Shown in pieces: positions 1 to 41,019 of a stretch of 61,804 nucleotides of DNA. The notes beneath the pieces are model-generated. The model did not search any database. It was not told the DNA's origin and saw nothing but the letters and a program-made list of their open reading frames with translations. How positions within the stretch are numbered: position 1 is the stretch's first letter; each line of letters begins with the position of its first letter. The stretch is taken from positions 1 through 61,804 of IMG/VR virus record IMGVR_UViG_3300012920_000040; one strand, written 5' to 3'. The stretch is from a virus (taxonomy: Duplodnaviria; Caudoviricetes). Made by a program: the position numbers and the translations under genes.

Positions 1-115
1 AACACGCCTCACCAGGACTAAACAGCGTGTCTAAACAACAGTCCTTCATACCTGCCTCTGAGGGTGAGACAGGAATATCATAACCAGTGTTCCCCGCACT
101 AATACTTAACCCTTT
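1..115 (+). ncRNA. Structured psbA 5' leader, PhotoRC-II-like RNA motif (may be truncated by window edge)
   Basis: Stem ACACGC(2-7)/GCGTGT(25-30); loop CTCACC(8-13) complementary to GGTGAG(63-68); stem CCTG(51-54)/CAGG(70-73); directly upstream of psbA, the known context of PhotoRC motifs. Confidence 0.7.
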
Positions 116-34925: not shown

Positions 34926-34970
34926 AACTGGCACATTGCCCTTGACACTGCCCATTCACTGCCCTATAAT
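34926..34970 (+). promoter_or_regulatory. Consensus sigma70 early promoter with upstream AACTGGCACA element
   Basis: TTGACA(34942)-N17-TATAAT(34965). Confidence 0.88.
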
Positions 34971-34992: not shown

Positions 34993-35226
34993 ATGACCAT
35001 CCCATCCCCTGATGACTACCTTATTGACAATGAAGGTGATGAGTATTTGATGAGGGTTGTCATTGATACCAGTCTCAGCAAGTTTTATCTTTACTCTAAT
35101 GAAGGTGAAACCAGAACTGTTGACTGTGATAACACTGACCAGTTTATGAATGTCCTTGAGTTAATCAATGCAGTGGTTCCTGATGAATGCATTGCATATG
35201 CTGAACCAGTTGTGTCAAAAGTCTAA
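34993..35226 (+). CDS. Conserved cyanophage hypothetical protein
   Basis: GAGG SD; FYLYSNEG..VDC..QFMNVL. Confidence 0.8.
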   Translation: MTIPSPDDYLIDNEGDEYLMRVVIDTSLSKFYLYSNEGETRTVDCDNTDQFMNVLELINAVVPDECIAYAEPVVSKV

Positions 35227-35356: not shown

Positions 35357-35539
35357 ATGAGAAGAGAAACCAGACAATCTATGGAAATGTTATTTGCTGC
35401 GAAATGGAACTTACCCAAAGCGGCAAACAACTGCAATTTAACCTTAAAGGAGATGAAAATCACATTTAATGAATATTGCAATTTAAACCCTCCTACCTAT
35501 AATGAGAAAGGTGAATATATTGGGAGTGTGGCGGAATAG
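35357..35539 (+). CDS. Conserved cyanophage hypothetical protein (overlaps tRNA)
   Basis: MEMLFAAKWNLPKAA..C.LT.KEMKITFNEYC. Confidence 0.7.
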   Translation: MRRETRQSMEMLFAAKWNLPKAANNCNLTLKEMKITFNEYCNLNPPTYNEKGEYIGSVAE

Positions 35540-35606
35540 GTAGACGCACCAGACTTAAAATCTGTTGAGCATTATGCTCGTGGGGGTTCAATTCCCCCCA
35601 CTCCTA
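35522..35606 (+). tRNA. trnL: tRNA-Leu(TAA), CCA not encoded
   Basis: Acceptor GGGAGTG/CACTCCT, anticodon loop CTTAAAA, long variable arm GAGCA/TGCTC, T arm GGGGG-TTCAATT-CCCCC. Confidence 0.95.
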
Positions 35607-35664
35607 TTTTGATGTGAATTTTGCATTATTCAAGATGATATAATACTTCTAATACTAACCTAAT

Positions 35665-35985
35665 ATGTCTACACTAGCATTACACAAATATGACAAAATA
35701 TATGCAAAATCAAGAAACCCATACAAAACACAAGAACATGTTAAATACAAGGAGGAGAAGGAAATACAGTTAAGACTGTATTTTAGATGCGAGTCCAGTC
35801 ATTACACTAAGCACATGAAAGTCAATTTCTGGTATTCCAATGATATGGAAGAATGGAGGTGGACACTCACCTCAGATGAAGATATCACTCTTCAAGAGAG
35901 TGGTAACAGAGAAGAACTTCGTGATGCTATGAATGATGTTGCCAATACAGTAGAGTATCTACTTGACAATGATATGATAAAGTGA
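35665..35985 (+). CDS. Hypothetical protein (start possibly 35815)
   Basis: C-half MKVNFWYS..WRWTL..QESG..AMNDVANTVEY. Confidence 0.65.
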   Translation: MSTLALHKYDKIYAKSRNPYKTQEHVKYKEEKEIQLRLYFRCESSHYTKHMKVNFWYSNDMEEWRWTLTSDEDITLQESGNREELRDAMNDVANTVEYLLDNDMIK

Positions 35986-35991
35986 TATAAT
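35963..35991 (+). promoter_or_regulatory. Consensus sigma70 promoter
   Basis: TTGACA-N17-TATAAT with extended TG. Confidence 0.88.
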
Positions 35992-35996
35992 TCACA

Positions 35997-36052
35997 AGTG
36001 TGAAGGAAGTTGCACTTAGTGCTAATCAAGGGGACTTAGGTCCCCTTTTTTT
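35997..36052 (+). ncRNA. Candidate ~55-nt small RNA
   Basis: Bounded by consensus promoter and terminator; no ATG-started ORF; 5' GTGTGAAGGAAGT. Confidence 0.65.
36028..36052 (+). terminator. Rho-independent terminator
   Basis: GGGGAC-TTAG-GTCCCC followed by T7. Confidence 0.9.
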
Positions 36053-36093
36053 ATGAATAAATAACTCATAACGGATTATAGTGCGTAAGAAAG

Positions 36094-39000
36094 ATGCCTC
36101 TTAGCAGACTTGATAATTTCCTTAAAAACGTACGTGGCAATATTCTGTATGTTGACCCCAACAACTTGGATGCTACAGACGGTATTGAGAATCAGGGAAA
36201 TTCCATTGCTCGTCCATTCAAAACCCTGCAAAGGGCATTAATTGAAGCAGCTAGATTCTCCTATCAGAGGGGACAAGATAATGACAGGTTTGAGAAGACA
36301 ACAGTTATGCTTCTCCCTGGTGAACATGCCATTGATAATAGACCTGGTTGGATTCCCACAGGAACAACTGCAACCCCAAACACATTTTTGCTGAGAAATG
36401 GTCAGACTGCTACTGACTTTCCTGCGCTGAGCAACACTAGTGATTTTAATGTTTTTGCTGAAAACAATATTCTCTACAAGTTCAATAGTATTCATGGTGG
36501 CATCATCATCCCCAGAGGTGTGTCAATTGTTGGTTCTGATTTAAGAAAAACCAAAATTAGACCACTTTATGTTCCAAACCCCAAAAATGATGATATTGAA
36601 AGGTCTGCAATTTTCAGGGTAACTGGTGCTTGTTATTTCTTCCAGTTCTCTATTTTTGATGCTAAACCCACAAGAGGTGTATATAGAGATTATACAACAA
36701 ATAAAGCAGCACCCACATTCTCACACCACAAACTAACCTGTTTTGAATATGCTGATGGCATCAATCCAGTTAGTATTAATGATGAATTCAACACCTACAC
36801 AACAAGTCGCACTGACTTGGAGATGTATTATGAGAAAATAGGTAGAGCTTATGGTCCTGCTAGTGGTAGAGAAATCTCACCAAACTTCCCTGACCCTGGT
36901 GTAGATATTCAACCCAGAATTGATGAATTTAGGATTGTTGGTCCTATTGGTGGTGGTGTTGGTATCAGCAGTATTAAGGCAGGTGATGGCAACAACCCAT
37001 CTACTCTTATCAATGTTAAGACCTCAGCAGGTATTGAGGGTCTTAATGTAGATACAAATGTCATTATCAATAATGTAACTGACCCCAGATACAATGGAAC
37101 CTTCCTTGTTAAGGAAGTTTTGGATACTAATGCTAATGGTGTAACTGAATTTTCCTATGAAGTTCCTGTAACACCAGCAAATGCTCTCCCCAATCCACTG
37201 GGTTCAAGTATTGACCTTTCTACTGATACAGTATCCAGTGCATCACCCTATGTCTTTAATATCTCACTGAGATCAATCTTTGGCATGTGTGGTATGCACG
37301 CTGATGGATCTAAAGCAACTGGATTCAAGTCAATGGTTGTGGCTCAATTCACTGGAATCAGCCTTCAGGTTGATGACAATGCATTTGTGAAGTATAACTC
37401 ATCAAGTGGCACATTTGATGACTCCACTACTGTTCCTAATCTGCATACAGACATTAATGCAGTTTATAAACCATCATATGAGAACTTCCACATCAAGGCA
37501 TCTAATAATGGTTTGATGCAGTTGGTATCCATCTTTGCTATTGGATTCTCTGACCAGTTTGTTGTAGATAGTGGTGGTGATTTTTCAGTCACCAACTCAA
37601 ACTCCAACTTTGGTCAAATCGCTCTTAAATCCACTGGTTTTAGAAGAGATGCATTTTCACAGGATGATGTTGGATACATTACTCAAATTATTCCTCCTAA
37701 GACCCTTAAACCAGGTTTCTCAACAATTGAATTCCCATCAATTGATATTACCAAAACAGTAGGTGTTGGTAATGCATCAAGAATGTATCTGTATCAGTAT
37801 GAGAGTAGGGATGTAAAACCACCCTCAATTGTTCAAGGATATAGATTTGGTGCTAATCATGGTGAGAATCTATTTGCTGTGATTCCAACTAATGGTCAAC
37901 CAGTTGCTTTCTCAGCAAGAGTCATCATGGATGACACTGCAACTGATAATAGCAGACCAACAGGATATAAGAGGTCTGTTGTTGGTAGAAATGTATCAAG
38001 TGGAAATAGTATCACAAGTTCCACACTTACATTCCTTGAAAATCACCAGTTCAAACAGGGTGAGTCAATCAGAGTTATTGCAAATAATGGTAGACTGCCT
38101 GATGGTCTTAAGGCAAATAGACTTTACTATGCAATTGTTGATGGTCTGAACCCTGACCAACTGCGTATTGCACAGTCTATTAATGACTCACAAACTGCCT
38201 CTAATGTACAAATCAATAATTTGGGTGGTACATTGTATGTTGAGAGTAGAGTAAGTGACAAGACACCTGGAGACCCTGGACATCCCATTCAGTATGATGA
38301 TGCTGAAACACAATGGTTTGTAAATGTTTCCTCAGCATCTACTGAGAACAACCTGTATAACAAACTTGTATTGGGTGGTTTGGGTCCATCTTCACCTAGA
38401 ACATTTATTGTCAGAACTAATGATGTAAGACAATCAGATGATAGAATTCATAAGTTTAGATATGTAATTCCTGCTAACACAGGTATCACATCAGCAAGAC
38501 CTCCCCTTGATGGATTTACTATTCAGGAGTCAGGAGATGTTTCTGGTGCAAATGATACAGAAGTAGCACTTGCCTTCAACCCAGCATCAGTTGAGATGAA
38601 CAATGATGCTCAGATGAGAAACTTCAGTTTCATTGCTAAGACATCATATACAAATGGAATTGCATTCTATGATTGTGAAAGACCTCATGGTTTATCAATT
38701 GGTTCTAGTGTAGAAATTAATAATGTTAGAAGTACAAACTTCCCAACTGTTGGTGCTGGTCAGTCAGGATATAATGGTGTATATGAGGTAGCAGGTATTA
38801 CCAGTGAGAAGACATTCTTTGTAACTGACATCCCTTCATCACCTGGTTCATTCATCAACAATACATCTCAGAGAAACACTTCTCTCCCCACATTTAGGAG
38901 AAAGAAATTTAATGAAGATTACTATGTTTATGATGTAGAAACAATCAATGAGTATGTTAATGGAGAGCAGGATGGTATCTATTATATCAGTGTGTTGAAT

Positions 39001-41019
39001 GCCTCTAACACTCCTGATGTTTCACCATTCAATATTAATGAGTATAGTCTTTCACAACCACTCCAGCAATATTATCCTCAGATTGACAGAGACAATCCAA
39101 AGTCATCTGTACAATCAACTAAGACTTATGCTCTTCCAACTAATATTGGTGAGACTGTTGTTAATGATCCTAAGTTTAGTGTCACACAAGAAACATTGTT
39201 TGACTTCTTCAAGGATTCTGGAGTTGGTGTTGCACTAACTGATATTGTTTCAAACCCAGTTGGTACTGCTTACACTATCTTTACACAGTATGACCATGGA
39301 TTGAACAAAATCTCAGTTGCTAATGTTGATAATGGTGGTTCAGGATATGGTGATGGAACTGCTACAATTCAATATTACTACAATGCTAAACTTGAGAATA
39401 CTCAACCTGGTTCAATTGGTAGATTTGCAACTGCAAGAGTAACAGTTGATGGAACATCTGCTGGTGAAATTATTGATTGTGAAATTATGGATGGTGGTTC
39501 AGCATTTGTTGCTGGTGACACATGTAGAATTACTGGTATCACCACTACAGCAGGATTTACCTTTGCTACAGTCAATGTAAGTCAAATTAGAGAGAATAGA
39601 GGTGATACTATTCAGGTAACTGGTATTGGTGATTATAATGGAAGAATGTACAATAAGTTGTACAGAATTGCTGCTATCTCTGGAACTAAACAAATTGATG
39701 TATTGCCCATCAATGAGTCACCTGGTATCTCTACTTTAGGATTAGGTCTTGATGTAGCAAAAGATGGATCCATGAGTCTTATTGGACCAACATATAATGC
39801 TCTTAGAATTGTAGATAATGGATTTATGTATGACCAGGTTTCTGGCATTGCTACCTTAACTACACAACAAAATAATGATATTAGAGTTAATAACACAGTA
39901 ACAGTCAGCAGAGCAGATGCTGACCTGTACAATGGTAATTTTGTTTGCATTGACAAAATTGGTCTTACTACTGTTGTTTTGGATGTAGGTATTGCAACAG
40001 TTACACCTGCTGCTAATGATGGTATTCTTATCCATCCAGGTGGTTATGATACAAACTTTGGTGACCTGGTTGTTGAGAATGGTAGACTACATGGCAGAGA
40101 AACACAAATCTATGCTGGTATCTCCACTGTATTGTTCCAACCAATTACAAGTTCAACTACTGATACCATCAGTATTGAGAACATGCCAAGATTTGACCTT
40201 AAAATTGGTGACTATCTGAGAGTTAATGATGAGTTGATGAGAATTAAGCAAACAGTAAGTAGAGTTGCCACTGATACCACAGTTAAGGTATTCAGAGGTG
40301 TTTATGGTAGTGTTGCTGACACTCACCCAGTTGGTTCTGTTATTAAAAAAGTTAAGTTCTATCCTCTTGAGTTTAGAAGAAACTCTATTATCAGAGCATC
40401 TGGTCACACATTTGAATATATTGGATATGGACCTGGTAACTACTCCACAGCATTCCCAGATAGACAGACTAGACAGTTATCTTTGTCAGAACAAATTAAC
40501 GTTCAGTCAATGAAAATCTCTGGTGGTGTTGTAAACTACACTGGCATGAATGACAGAGGTGACTTCTTCATTGGTAACAAGAGAATTGCTTCTAACACTG
40601 GTAGAGAGCAAGTCTATGACACACCAGTACAAACAGTTTGTGGTGAAGACCCATACTCTGGTGGTTCAGTTTCTGATACCTCTGACTTCAACTATGTTGA
40701 CTCCTCTATTCTCAAGGTTGAGAGAAACATGGTTATTGATGGTGGTGACAAAGGAGACATCCTTTCAGAGTTCAATGGACCTGTTTCATTCTCCAAGAAG
40801 ATTGTAAGCACATCACCAGAGGGTGTTGAGGCAAATAGTCTGTTTATCCAGGGTAATGCCCAAGTTTCAAGAAAAGTTACTGTTGGTATTGCTACTCCTA
40901 CAGAAGCAGGAACACCTGGTGACATTGTATTTGCTGCTAACCCAACAAATGGTGGCACTGTTGGTTGGGTTTACACAACAGGTAACAATTGGAAGACATT
41001 TGGAGCCATTGAGAGCTGA
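36094..41019 (+). CDS. Large virion structural protein (1641 aa) with beta-helix-like regions
   Basis: MPLSRLDNFLKN..PFKTLQRALIEA, GSDLRKT, TNSNSNFG; AATAAATA upstream. Confidence 0.85.
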   Translation: MPLSRLDNFLKNVRGNILYVDPNNLDATDGIENQGNSIARPFKTLQRALIEAARFSYQRGQDNDRFEKTTVMLLPGEHAIDNRPGWIPTGTTATPNTFLLRNGQTATDFPALSNTSDFNVFAENNILYKFNSIHGGIIIPRGVSIVGSDLRKTKIRPLYVPNPKNDDIERSAIFRVTGACYFFQFSIFDAKPTRGVYRDYTTNKAAPTFSHHKLTCFEYADGINPVSINDEFNTYTTSRTDLEMYYEKIGRAYGPASGREISPNFPDPGVDIQPRIDEFRIVGPIGGGVGISSIKAGDGNNPSTLINVKTSAGIEGLNVDTNVIINNVTDPRYNGTFLVKEVLDTNANGVTEFSYEVPVTPANALPNPLGSSIDLSTDTVSSASPYVFNISLRSIFGMCGMHADGSKATGFKSMVVAQFTGISLQVDDNAFVKYNSSSGTFDDSTTVPNLHTDINAVYKPSYENFHIKASNNGLMQLVSIFAIGFSDQFVVDSGGDFSVTNSNSNFGQIALKSTGFRRDAFSQDDVGYITQIIPPKTLKPGFSTIEFPSIDITKTVGVGNASRMYLYQYESRDVKPPSIVQGYRFGANHGENLFAVIPTNGQPVAFSARVIMDDTATDNSRPTGYKRSVVGRNVSSGNSITSSTLTFLENHQFKQGESIRVIANNGRLPDGLKANRLYYAIVDGLNPDQLRIAQSINDSQTASNVQINNLGGTLYVESRVSDKTPGDPGHPIQYDDAETQWFVNVSSASTENNLYNKLVLGGLGPSSPRTFIVRTNDVRQSDDRIHKFRYVIPANTGITSARPPLDGFTIQESGDVSGANDTEVALAFNPASVEMNNDAQMRNFSFIAKTSYTNGIAFYDCERPHGLSIGSSVEINNVRSTNFPTVGAGQSGYNGVYEVAGITSEKTFFVTDIPSSPGSFINNTSQRNTSLPTFRRKKFNEDYYVYDVETINEYVNGEQDGIYYISVLNASNTPDVSPFNINEYSLSQPLQQYYPQIDRDNPKSSVQSTKTYALPTNIGETVVNDPKFSVTQETLFDFFKDSGVGVALTDIVSNPVGTAYTIFTQYDHGLNKISVANVDNGGSGYGDGTATIQYYYNAKLENTQPGSIGRFATARVTVDGTSAGEIIDCEIMDGGSAFVAGDTCRITGITTTAGFTFATVNVSQIRENRGDTIQVTGIGDYNGRMYNKLYRIAAISGTKQIDVLPINESPGISTLGLGLDVAKDGSMSLIGPTYNALRIVDNGFMYDQVSGIATLTTQQNNDIRVNNTVTVSRADADLYNGNFVCIDKIGLTTVVLDVGIATVTPAANDGILIHPGGYDTNFGDLVVENGRLHGRETQIYAGISTVLFQPITSSTTDTISIENMPRFDLKIGDYLRVNDELMRIKQTVSRVATDTTVKVFRGVYGSVADTHPVGSVIKKVKFYPLEFRRNSIIRASGHTFEYIGYGPGNYSTAFPDRQTRQLSLSEQINVQSMKISGGVVNYTGMNDRGDFFIGNKRIASNTGREQVYDTPVQTVCGEDPYSGGSVSDTSDFNYVDSSILKVERNMVIDGGDKGDILSEFNGPVSFSKKIVSTSPEGVEANSLFIQGNAQVSRKVTVGIATPTEAGTPGDIVFAANPTNGGTVGWVYTTGNNWKTFGAIES

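Follow-up and report, generated by a model that had tools for sequence, protein, structure and literature searches.

A candidate small RNA of T4-like cyanophages with a seed complementary to the anticodon arm of host tRNA-Val(CAC)

Organization of the Locus

The window, i.e. the whole stretch of DNA analysed, comprises 61,804 nt (positions 1-61,804 of IMG/VR record IMGVR_UViG_3300012920_000040; Duplodnaviria; Caudoviricetes), and the features described here lie on its + strand. A phage tRNA-Leu(UAA) gene (35521-35607), which in other phages is directly preceded by the seed-hairpin unit described below, is followed by a 106-aa ORF (35665-35985; phrog_2818, annotated as of unknown function) with its TGA stop codon at 35983-35985. 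The last codons of this ORF are overlapped by the -35 box and spacer of a sigma-70-type promoter (35963-35991), which consists of TTGACA (35963-35968), a 17-nt spacer and TATAAT (35986-35991), matches the consensus at 12/12 positions and carries the TG of an extended -10 at 35983-35984. Perfect promoters of the TTGACA-N17-TATAAT kind occur twice in the window, at 34942 and 35963, both on the + strand; first-order Markov simulations (n = 300) give a mean of 0.093 per window, with two or more in 3/300. Between 35986 and 36093 there is no ORF of at least 20 aa on the + strand, and the only ORFs there are mechanical ones on the - strand.

The RNA is predicted to start at 35997 or 35998, a position inferred from the -10 spacing. 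Its 5' end would be formed by the seed GUGUGAAGGAAGU (35998-36010), which is antisense to nt 26-38 of host tRNA-Val(CAC). The seed is followed by a spacer (36011-36018), part of which is collinear with the antisense of the tRNA D-arm (GCACU vs GCGCU), and by a second antisense block, GUGCUAAUC (36019-36027), complementary to tRNA-Val(CAC) nt 5-13 (GAUUAGCAC). An intrinsic terminator (36028-36052) provides the 3' end of the predicted ~55-nt RNA; it comprises an 8-bp hairpin (36028-36047) with five G-C pairs and a loop of 4 nt, and a run of seven T (36046-36052). The fold of the 57-nt RNA has a predicted energy of -18.5 kcal/mol (z -2.51), and 3/200 shuffled sequences are equally stable. Outside the RNA, at 36056-36063, lies AATAAATA, which we take to be a T4-type late-promoter-like box for the tail-fibre gene (36094-41019; phrog_529, E 6e-301); its ATAAATA is invariant in 7/7 phages. 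A preliminary description of this DNA, made from the letters alone, had listed the promoter, the ORF-free gap, the terminator and a late motif between the terminator and the next gene, and all of these are found in place. With its own promoter, no ORF and an intrinsic terminator, the locus at 35963-36052 is supported by its sequence as a stand-alone sRNA gene, the transcript of which is predicted.

An RNA Family in T4-like Cyanophages

The unit is kept in 7/7 related phages, while its flanks and terminator stem differ. Each of these phages retains TTGACA, UGUGAAGGAAG and the terminator, and the stem sequence varies among three groups with its pairing maintained. The preliminary description had proposed a stand-alone non-coding RNA gene running from promoter to terminator, and had suggested looking for such units in other cyanophages; the seven relatives and at least 84 promoter-associated copies support such a gene, together with conservation of its 5' seed. 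These copies come from 127 motif occurrences, drawn from the window, six phage loci and 120 viral contigs, of which 84 have TTGACA-N16-18-TAnnnT located 4-14 nt upstream of the seed. A tRNA lies within 150 nt downstream of 50 of the 84 (38 Gly and 12 Leu, as counted from the listing), 25 have a T-run only, and nine have neither tRNA nor T-run.

Family members precede the tail-fibre gene, follow g23 or form the leader of phage tRNA-Gly/Leu genes. At least four genomic settings, unrelated to one another, contain the seed-hairpin module; in each it lies on the transcribed strand, either where a transcript begins or within a 3' UTR, and exact copies are present once per complete phage genome (5/5 genomes). 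The hairpin after the seed has a mean z of -2.98 in 73 distinct elements vs -0.19 in 32 controls, and 5/15 consensus pairs show compensatory changes. The invariance of the seed within the family is partly by construction, since members were gathered with exact-seed patterns; independent support comes from synteny and from 1-mismatch searches in 15 complete genomes/records. Syn9, Syn19 and S-SM2 are among the members. The reference phages carrying the element are 10/15 of those isolated on Synechococcus and 0/6 of those isolated on Prochlorococcus, counts that are not phylogenetically independent (4/10 carriers are near-identical), and the element is absent from 5/15 Synechococcus phages. The genome-wide search of P-TIM68, S-SCSM1 and S-T4 covered the GGAAG allele only.

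Two properties that had been proposed for the RNA apply to part of the family. Early timing fits the window's lineage, with its sigma-70-type promoter, but a late-promoter-like ATAAATA/CTAAATA box stands before the seed in Syn9, Syn19 and S-8S53; promoter class thus varies by lineage between early-type and late-type, and therefore no one timing suits all. A 5' hairpin (AGUGUGA/UUGCACU) is the minimum free energy fold in the window but is not conserved in the S-SM2 group, in whose consensus structure the seed is single-stranded.

No Rfam family covers the element, whether at the gathering score in the window and in 14 family loci or at E up to 10 over 35900-36120, where the sub-threshold matches are driven by the terminator. 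The element belongs to a large and apparently undescribed RNA family, which T4-like cyanophages carry in a single copy per genome. A reading of GAAGGAAG as a mini-ORF or Shine-Dalgarno site was rejected, as the short frames downstream differ per lineage (by eye, in the seven-phage alignment). A one-mismatch copy of the seed at window position 1927 lies inside a long ORF, has neither promoter nor hairpin, and was set aside as chance.

One metagenome relative has a CC insertion after 35997 together with a 3-nt deletion, which is the RB11-B form. The single-letter metagenome differences listed fall in the promoter spacer, at 36017-36018 and at 36027, and none of them is in the seed (35998-36010). 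The sequencing runs comprise 19 of DNA and one of RNA; the RNA run consists of oligo-dT contigs, which are blind to RNA ends, and none of them lies over 35978-36031.

Yfr1 and tRNA-Val(CAC) as Candidate Partners

The preliminary description had read the RNA as a sponge for the host sRNA Yfr1. On this account the RNA would take up Yfr1 (and Yfr10) via GUGUGA/GGA/GU with two bulged A residues, and Yfr1 targets would be de-repressed, as they are by Yfr2. ACUCCUCACAC, the Yfr1 motif, occurs in single-stranded form in all host genomes tested (5/5), each of which has one site that Rfam matches to Yfr1 (RF01116); the two-bulge pairing is arithmetically correct; and some copies have an upstream GG, as in the anti-Yfr1 sequence. 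There is also a precedent, as host Yfr2 is an anti-Yfr1 sRNA that pairs with another abundant small RNA and counters Yfr1 through its 5' motif (PMC6778093). Predicted net binding to Yfr1 ranges from -6.8 to -12.5 kcal/mol over 18 elements. For the window RNA, however, the predicted ddG is -11.9 kcal/mol, which is equalled by 22/300 shuffled seeds and is weaker than the host Yfr2-Yfr1 benchmark of -16.5. Moreover, the perfect anti-Yfr1 motif GTGTGAGGAGT stands behind a promoter in 7/34 viral hits vs 84/127 for the GAAGGAAG seed, and the viral units combining a promoter with GTGTGAGGAGT gave no Cyano-1 match in the five loci scanned.

A better fit is provided by tRNA-Val(CAC). Over 13 contiguous nucleotides the seed at 35998-36010 is the perfect antisense of A26, the 5' strand of the anticodon stem and the whole anticodon loop, and the two A residues that are bulged in the Yfr1 pairing are exactly those needed for this perfect antisense. 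The predicted ddG for the window RNA and tRNA-Val(CAC) is -23.5 kcal/mol net of unfolding, a value matched by 0/300 shuffled seeds, although cofold energies ignore tRNA tertiary structure and modifications. All 18 family members compared (18/18) are predicted to bind the tRNA better than Yfr1 (mean -18.0 vs -10.7 kcal/mol). On the host side, the locus in which the motif recurs is tRNA-Val(CAC) in reverse complement (11/30 host loci fetched); aragorn, run on nine of those 11, identified an identical tRNA-Val(CAC) in 9/9. The two marine Synechococcus genomes G001 and G002 have the same tRNA-Val(CAC) anticodon arm.

Complementarity extends beyond the searched 11-mer in 85/86 promoter-associated elements (median 15 nt, maximum 19), compared with 7/43 control occurrences, and some variants regain complementarity to the tRNA past a 1-nt bulge, e.g. 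UCGCGCUA. The first 33 nt of the window RNA align to the antisense of tRNA nt 5-39; among 82 comparisons covering 41 host tRNAs this alignment ranks first, and its score is reached by 1/2000 shuffles. The second block, GUGCUAAUC, is confined to the window's clade (5/81 distinct elements). The window contains three other antisense 13-14-mers of host tRNAs, all of chance length. Because a 13-mer chance match is expected somewhere in 62 kb, the case for the tRNA rests on position, family flanks and alleles. The seed is complementary to one host tRNA beyond chance, and the seed flanks, the second block and the second seed allele track the sequence of the tRNA and not that of Yfr1. It is more likely that the RNA pairs with tRNA-Val(CAC) than that it soaks up Yfr1. 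These in silico comparisons do not support Yfr1 as the selected partner, weak cross-pairing with it may occur, and the sponge is the least probable of the readings considered here. Mature tRNAs are modified, tightly folded and mostly bound by EF-Tu, synthetase or ribosomes, which counts against pairing.

Seed Alleles and Host tRNA Alleles

Besides GGAAG, the seed has a second allele, UGUGAAGGAUG (GGAUG), with the same architecture; it is promoter-associated in 22 of 107 occurrences, with ~18 genuine-looking by eye. Among elements with UCCG upstream, CA stands in front of UCCG in 8/12 distinct GGAUG seeds vs 1/20 GGAAG seeds, and the GGAUG seed together with the CAUCCG flank is the exact 17-nt antisense of the host allele CAUCCUUCACACGGAUG. 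Neither the GGAUG allele nor the CAUCCG flank has a counterpart in Yfr1. The host tRNA alleles occur once per genome each, one in 48 and the other in seven of 301 cyanobacterial genomes, and the reversed-pattern controls gave 0. The 17-mer tRNA arm was absent, within two mismatches, from most of the small genomes searched. Seed variants appear to follow host tRNA variants, with two alleles on each side, the pairing of alleles being by sequence and not by known phage-host pairs. Any sequence antisense to a stem is again a stem, so part of the allele change seen on both sides could come from a hairpin that the phage RNA forms with itself.

Proposed Mechanism and Alternatives

We favour, at a probability of about 0.55, the reading that host tRNA-Val(CAC) is sequestered by a ~55-nt phage sRNA, which is encoded by a single-copy gene at this locus and composed of a single-stranded 5' seed, a short spacer and the hairpin of the terminator. 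From the observed anatomy, family, complementarity, co-variation with host tRNA alleles and codon bias, the following mechanism can be proposed. The RNA would be transcribed in large amounts; its source would vary with the phage, being a consensus sigma-70 promoter, a late-type promoter or the 3' UTR downstream of the major capsid gene, or the leader of phage tRNA transcripts. In vivo it would nucleate on the exposed 7-nt anticodon loop and zip into the stem and beyond. The tRNA-Val(CAC), unfolded or sequestered, would be impaired in anticodon recognition, GUG decoding and probably charging. Translation would then be tilted towards phage messages, because GUG is the commonest valine codon of the host and the rarest of the phage, and phages with tRNA arrays carry tRNA-Val(UAC). 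GUG makes up 50% of valine codons in the ORFs of the host G001 loci vs 10% in the window ORFs, and the phage tRNAs in the fetched loci (n = 316) include 21 Val(UAC) and 0 Val(CAC). As tRNA-Val(UAC) can read GUG by wobble, loss of tRNA-Val(CAC) would slow GUG decoding and not stop it. A broader form of the proposal is held more tentatively, at somewhat short of even odds: many marine and freshwater cyanomyoviruses, Syn9, Syn19 and S-SM2 included, would make an abundant sRNA that withdraws the major valine tRNA of the host from translation by pairing with its anticodon arm, amounting to an RNA-run, codon-selective host shut-off in which seed alleles co-evolve with host tRNA alleles and the phage tRNA-Val(UAC) covers the needs of the phage.

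Pairing with tRNA-Val(CAC) might also occur without inhibition. The RNA could shield the anticodon loop against a host anticodon nuclease or some other defence directed at tRNAs, serve as a sensor of tRNA status, or use the tRNA to protect its own 5' end, and any of these would yield the same complementarity and allele tracking as sequestration. The linkage of the unit to phage tRNA clusters, with 50/84 copies directly before a tRNA, is in keeping with such a role, and tRNA-targeting defences with phage counter-measures are established elsewhere, e.g. PrrC and T4 Pnk/Rnl (PMC3014915). A masked anticodon would, however, be non-functional as well, so protection and inhibition are hard to separate; the hairpin of the tRNA-linked copies has neither a T-run nor an alternative fold competing with the seed, and therefore a switch is not evident. 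We know of no anticodon nuclease specific for tRNA-Val, and consider non-inhibitory pairing unlikely. A decidedly unlikely reading is that the RNA is a trans-acting sRNA directed at host or phage mRNAs, or at another sRNA, with CUUCCUUCACA-like sites, its likeness to the tRNA being a matter of ancestry (a captured antisense tRNA fragment). A 5' seed with a terminator is the standard layout of such sRNAs, the 11-mer is found 1-3 times per host genome in 118/151 genomes, non-tRNA sites included, and the seed looks purine-rich and Shine-Dalgarno-like when read by eye. Yet the non-tRNA host sites lie in unrelated coding contexts without conserved flanks (19/30 loci), no copy of the motif in sense orientation occurs in the window, and both the flanks and the alleles of the seed go with the tRNA; in a relic, complementarity would not be restored time and again through differently bulged arrangements.

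The element could finally act other than in trans, as a promoter-terminator insulator between the early genes and the late tail-fibre gene or as a DNA site (an operator, or a recombination or attachment relic of a tRNA gene), which is very unlikely. The terminator does also end the transcript of the upstream ORF and shield the late gene, temperate phages carry tRNA-gene fragments at their attachment sites, and in the tRNA-array copies the promoter spacer is a co-varying palindrome to which a protein could bind. Against this, the module recurs once per genome and on the transcribed strand in its unrelated settings, T4-like cyanomyoviruses are lytic, and the promoter region is unlike the antisense of the rest of the tRNA (mean 9.9 vs 9.6 in shuffles). 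The latter comparison also led to rejection of a decayed, whole inverted tRNA gene, since the antisense of the 3' half of the tRNA is not recognisable in the promoter region. A phage attachment site in a tRNA gene is not supported either, the likeness being limited to the loop and 5' side with none upstream of the seed.

Relation to Known RNA Systems

The closest formal counterpart is Yfr2/Cyano-1 (RF01701), likewise a short RNA in which a conserved single-stranded 5' motif beginning GUGUGA is followed by a stem-loop. The Yfr2 motif UGUGUGAGGAGU is, however, a perfect anti-Yfr1 sequence, whereas the phage motif GUGUGAAGGAAGU has two extra A; the phage RNA also lacks a GGAAACA-type loop, is phage-encoded and is complementary to a tRNA. 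Host Cyano-1 loci score 42.7-57.4 bits, and no Cyano-1 match was obtained at E up to 10 over 35900-36120 or at the gathering score in the window or the 14 family loci, which also speaks against the sponge. Phage-encoded sRNAs acting on host mRNAs have reportedly been found. The candidate resembles seed-type bacterial and phage sRNAs in having a promoter of its own, a 5' seed that is conserved, a body that varies and a terminator hairpin, but its predicted partner is a mature tRNA and not an mRNA, and the complementarity covers 13-19 nt of a structured arm.

Inter-molecular pairing that unfolds a tRNA, as is proposed here, has a parallel in the E. coli tRNA-LysT/tRNA-ArgU heterodimers, in which pairing unfolds the tRNA, lowers its availability and affects decoding; there both partners are host tRNAs joined through the T and acceptor arms with a modest predicted energy of -8.6 kcal/mol (bioRxiv 10.64898/2026.09.02.748885), whereas here a dedicated phage RNA would pair with the anticodon arm. 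T-box leaders also read a specific tRNA via its anticodon, but do so with a 3-4-nt specifier and acceptor-end pairing in a cis-acting antiterminator switch, while pairing of the phage RNA would open up the anticodon stem. Rfam gave no T-box match in the window or over 35900-36120, and the consensus structure is a single hairpin with no switch evident. Small non-tRNA RNAs that are co-transcribed with tRNAs and set free when these are processed are exemplified by the stable RNAs C and D of the T4 tRNA cluster and by E. coli 3'ETS-leuZ, which derives from the spacer of a tRNA transcript; the 50/84 family copies that are tRNA-Gly/Leu leaders resemble them, although 3'ETS-leuZ sponges sRNAs and not tRNAs. 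According to literature of the 1960s-70s, T-even infection selectively inactivates a major host leucine tRNA. In that case, as in the one proposed, a T4-like phage removes a host tRNA for a codon that is common in the host and rare in the phage, and brings tRNAs of its own; the agent there is cleavage by a protein endonuclease and here would be an antisense RNA.

Implications

Accounts of phage-host conflict over tRNAs usually centre on proteins (anticodon nucleases and repair enzymes) and on phage tRNA genes. If sequestration of tRNA-Val(CAC) is correct, an antisense RNA against one host tRNA would add a new layer to this conflict and would be, as far as the literature search reaches, the first virus-encoded antisense regulator of a tRNA. 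It would also offer a route by which an AT-rich phage favours its own messages in a GC-rich host, and would assign a function to a conserved, unannotated element of well-studied cyanophages. The locus further serves as a caution that a short, bulged match to a famous sRNA motif can hide a perfect match elsewhere. The anti-tRNA idea can be tested directly in Syn9 and Synechococcus, where the outcome of infection is decided by tRNA supply (PMC11726456). The Syn9 RNA is predicted to be ~50 nt long, to map near 119.42 kb (119.40-119.48 kb) and to start at or just before CCGUGUGAAGG.

An RNA gene upstream of the tail fibre gene

Reading of the sequence from 35400 to 36700, with a consensus scan, places a -35 box TTGACA at 35963-35968 (+) and, after a 17-nt spacer, a -10 box TATAAT at 35986-35991 (+), with TG two bases ahead of it. 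About 40 nt past this promoter lies a terminator hairpin (36028-36047, +; 8 pairs, 5 of them G-C, loop of 4) followed by seven T. No + strand ORF of at least 20 aa was found between the promoter and the downstream tail fibre ORF (36094-41019, +). Upstream are tRNA-Leu(UAA) (35521-35607, +) and an ORF of unknown function (phrog_2818; 35665-35985, +), the last codons of which contain the -35 box. The layout of promoter, ORF-free interval and terminator given in the preliminary description is therefore borne out. Promoters matching at 12/12 positions occur twice in the window (34942 and 35963) against a mean of 0.093 in first-order Markov simulations of the window, and 3 of 300 simulated windows reached two or more. 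The predicted 57-nt RNA has a folding energy of -18.5 kcal/mol (z -2.51). The RNA gene is confirmed as a sequence feature, from which its transcription is predicted.

The second perfect promoter, TTGACA-N17-TATAAT at 34942-34970, lies 1 kb upstream and precedes an ORF of unknown function (phrog_662; 34993-35226); the region of small ORFs and tRNA houses both perfect promoters of the window. A near-consensus promoter (TTGCAA-N16-TATAAT, 10/12 matches; 35476-35503) stands directly 5' of tRNA-Leu(UAA). The leader of this tRNA lacks the seed, the conserved motif at the predicted 5' end of the RNA, which does precede tRNA-Leu in other phages.

Conservation among phages

The window, an entire viral contig of 61.8 kb, includes psbA-, psbD-, zwf-, gnd- and talC-like ORFs. 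Its nearest named relatives are the Synechococcus myoviruses RB11-B, S-B05, S-B43 and RN05-S (approximately 75% identity), followed by S-SM2 and Bellamy. When the homologous interval was aligned across the window and these six phages, TTGACA, UGUGAAGGAAG and an ATAAATA box ahead of the fibre gene were invariant. Each of three groups has its own version of -10 box, spacer and entire terminator stem, and stem pairing is kept nonetheless.

Promoter-seed units, which the preliminary description had proposed seeking in cyanophage genomes, recur widely. An IMG/VR scan for TTGACA, 20-45 nt and TGTGAAGGAAG matched at least 120 contigs; these, as listed, together with six phage loci and the window gave 127 motif occurrences for inspection. 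Among the matches listed, 84 of 127 have TTGACA-N16-18-TAnnnT ending 4-14 nt 5' of the motif, and the other 43, in unrelated and mostly coding contexts, served as controls. A phage tRNA lies within 150 nt downstream in 50 of the 84 promoter-bearing copies (38 Gly and 12 Leu, counted by hand), a T-run only in 25 and neither in 9, again among the matches listed. Folded against shuffles, the 40 nt 3' of the seed give a mean z of -2.98 in the promoter-bearing set (z < -2 in 44/73 distinct elements) and -0.19 in controls (3/32). The seed is unpaired in a consensus structure built from eleven S-SM2-type copies, where compensatory changes affect 5 of the 15 pairs in the hairpin. Exact copies number one per genome in 5/5 complete phage genomes or records, where one-mismatch matches are no more frequent than a reversed-pattern control. 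No Rfam family matched the element in the window or the family loci scanned.

The module lies directly 3' of the g23 stop codon in S-8S53 and SynMITS9220M01, sharing the g23 terminator. In Syn9 (119,424) and Syn19 it lies approximately 400 nt past g23 and is preceded by an ATAAATA box. Every setting of the module would predict high expression, as would suit stoichiometric pairing with something as plentiful as a tRNA.

Host tRNA-Val(CAC) or Yfr1 as partner

The searched 11-mer was found in 118/151 host-family genomes. Of 30 host loci fetched, 11 have it within a tRNA gene, in reverse complement. In the 9 of these loci given to Aragorn the gene is tRNA-Val(CAC), identical in 9/9; its anticodon arm is shared by marine Synechococcus MIT S9451 and S9452. 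In the window, A26, the 5' strand of the anticodon stem and the complete anticodon loop have their antisense in the seed GUGUGAAGGAAGU (35998-36010, +), and tRNA nt 5-13 have theirs in a second block, GUGCUAAUC (36019-36027, +). This second block is restricted to the window's clade (5/81 distinct elements). RNA nt 1-33 are collinear with the antisense of tRNA nt 5-39, the top result of 82 comparisons (41 host tRNAs in both orientations), with an alignment score reached by 1 of 2000 shuffles. The promoter region, set against the remainder of the tRNA, showed no likeness. Since chance should yield a 13-mer match to one host tRNA or another within 62 kb, and three other 13-14-mers were seen in the window, the case for the tRNA rests on position and family. 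Among the matches listed, antisense extends beyond the searched 11-mer in 85/86 promoter-associated elements (median 15, maximum 19), whereas contiguous complementarity is just 11 in 36/43 controls. With a -10 box 10-11 nt away from the motif, the extra letters CCG or UCCG prolong the antisense; UG, UGC or UGCG are frequent 3' of the seed, and in some copies antisense resumes after a one-base bulge (AUGCG; UCGCGCUA).

The preliminary description had named the host small RNA Yfr1 as the partner. Its motif is present in 5/5 cyanobacterial genomes tested (reached through phage PsbD), with one site per genome being an Rfam Yfr1 match. Cyano-1 RNAs account for four further sites; their 5' end, UGUGUGAGGAGU, perfectly complements the Yfr1 motif, in agreement with the countering of Yfr1 by Yfr2 through a conserved 5' motif described by Lambrecht et al. 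(PMC6778093). Compared with that Yfr2 motif, the phage seed has two extra A residues. Cofolding of the window RNA with Yfr1 gives -11.9 kcal/mol, equalled by 22/300 shuffled seeds, against -16.5 kcal/mol for host Yfr2 with Yfr1. With tRNA-Val(CAC), the net predicted binding of the window RNA is -23.5 kcal/mol, and 0/300 shuffled seeds do as well; over 18 family members the means are -18.0 for the tRNA and -10.7 for Yfr1, the tRNA being better in 18/18. The partner was thus probably misnamed for an RNA gene that is itself real, and a small RNA directed against host tRNA-Val(CAC) is the best-supported reading. We infer that it would be expressed, pair with the tRNA in cells and affect translation.

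Few viral contigs have a perfect anti-Yfr1 motif behind TTGACA (34 matches, 7 with the promoter pattern). This motif, GTGTGAGGAGT, stands at the transcript start behind a promoter in two groups of viral loci (L278/L289/L293 and L269/L281/L286/L296), one of which has it approximately 70 nt 5' of tRNA-Leu(UAA). Cyano-1 had no match at gathering score in the five loci scanned (L293, L278, L289, L269, L286). These loci, rather than the window RNA, would be the candidates for a phage anti-Yfr1 RNA.

Paired seed and tRNA alleles

Host genomes have two alleles of the anticodon arm, each once per genome. Allele CUUCCUUCACACGGAAG is found in approximately 85/151 family genomes (hand count) and 48/301 genomes phylum-wide, and CAUCCUUCACACGGAUG in 3/151 and 7/301; reversed-pattern controls gave 0 in the phylum search (301 genomes). 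Searches of the host family's small genomes did not find the arm in most of them. The seed matching the second allele, UGUGAAGGAUG, has the promoter pattern in 22/107 occurrences among the matches listed. On visual inspection, 16 of the 22 stand 5' of tRNA-Gly and have a hairpin, 1 is of the window's tail fibre type, 1 is of another type and 4 look like chance. Among the matches listed, CA stands ahead of UCCG-flanked seeds in 8/12 distinct GGAUG elements vs 1/20 GGAAG elements, and CA, UCCG and the GGAUG seed together are antisense to the second host allele, exactly and over 17 nt. GGAAG seeds mostly begin with G at the CA position, which would fit a requirement that transcripts start with a purine. 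Both the relation in sequence to the tRNA and its co-variation are shown. As a stem's antisense also forms a stem, the two-sided change could be partly self-structure; the two seed alleles nevertheless correspond exactly, by sequence, to the two host tRNA alleles.

Distribution, codon use and novelty

The element is present in 10/15 Synechococcus-isolated reference phages (Syn9, Syn19, S-SM2, Bellamy, S-B05, S-B43, RB11-B, RN05-S, S-8S53, SynMITS9220M01) and 0/6 Prochlorococcus-isolated ones (P-SSM2, P-SSM4, P-HM1, P-HM2, P-RSM4 and P-TIM68, the last searched genome-wide for the GGAAG allele only), counts that are not independent, four carriers being near-identical. It was not found in S-PM2, S-RSM4, S-CRM01, S-SCSM1 and S-T4 (the last two genome-wide for the GGAAG allele only).

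In ORFs of at least 200 aa, GUG makes up 50% of valine codons (31.6 per 1000) in loci of a marine Synechococcus host (G001) vs 10% (7.2 per 1000) in the window; a table in PMC9964418 gives a similar contrast for S-CREM1 and its host. The 316 phage tRNAs in the fetched loci include 21 Val(UAC) and 0 Val(CAC). Infection of Synechococcus WH5701 by Syn9 is reported to be decided by tRNA supply (PMC11726456), and in E. coli complementary RNA has been proposed to sequester tRNA (bioRxiv 10.64898/2026.09.02.748885). For T4-like cyanophages, PMC9964418 gives CfrI, PhotoRC-II, wcaG, manA, glnA and abiF as non-coding RNAs. The literature searched in full text yielded no account of a tRNA-antisense phage RNA or of this element, and the claim of novelty extends no further than that literature.

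Additional observations

A PhotoRC-II RNA (RF01717, 41.7 bits) occupies window 1-86, cut by the 5' end of the window, directly 5' of the psbA-like ORF (87-1202). One viral contig (L011; 10.5 kb of sequence) has 22 tRNA genes and a permuted cyanobacterial-type tmRNA (RF01851, 141.9 bits), which ties such tRNA-array contigs to cyanobacterial hosts. The tRNA-linked copies (L009, L015, L018, L024 and others) have a palindromic 17-nt spacer between their -35 and -10 boxes, with co-varying arms (GACAAGA..TCTTGTC, GACATAA..TTATGTC, GACAGAAT..ATTCTGTC); this palindrome could serve as an operator or be a hairpin in the trailer of the preceding tRNA. Ten copies (L022, L039, L060, L078, L079, L097, L116, L054, L065, L073) have a longer structured insert 3' of the seed, in which a second seed-like stretch (CCUGUGAAGGGAAACC) may be displayed in a loop as another tRNA-binding site. 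In many cyanomyoviruses (L373-L384), UCACAU-like letters come after the g23 stop region CAUGUGA and form a small hairpin ahead of the g23 terminator; the anti-tRNA seed takes the place of this short 3' UTR in S-8S53 and SynMITS9220M01.
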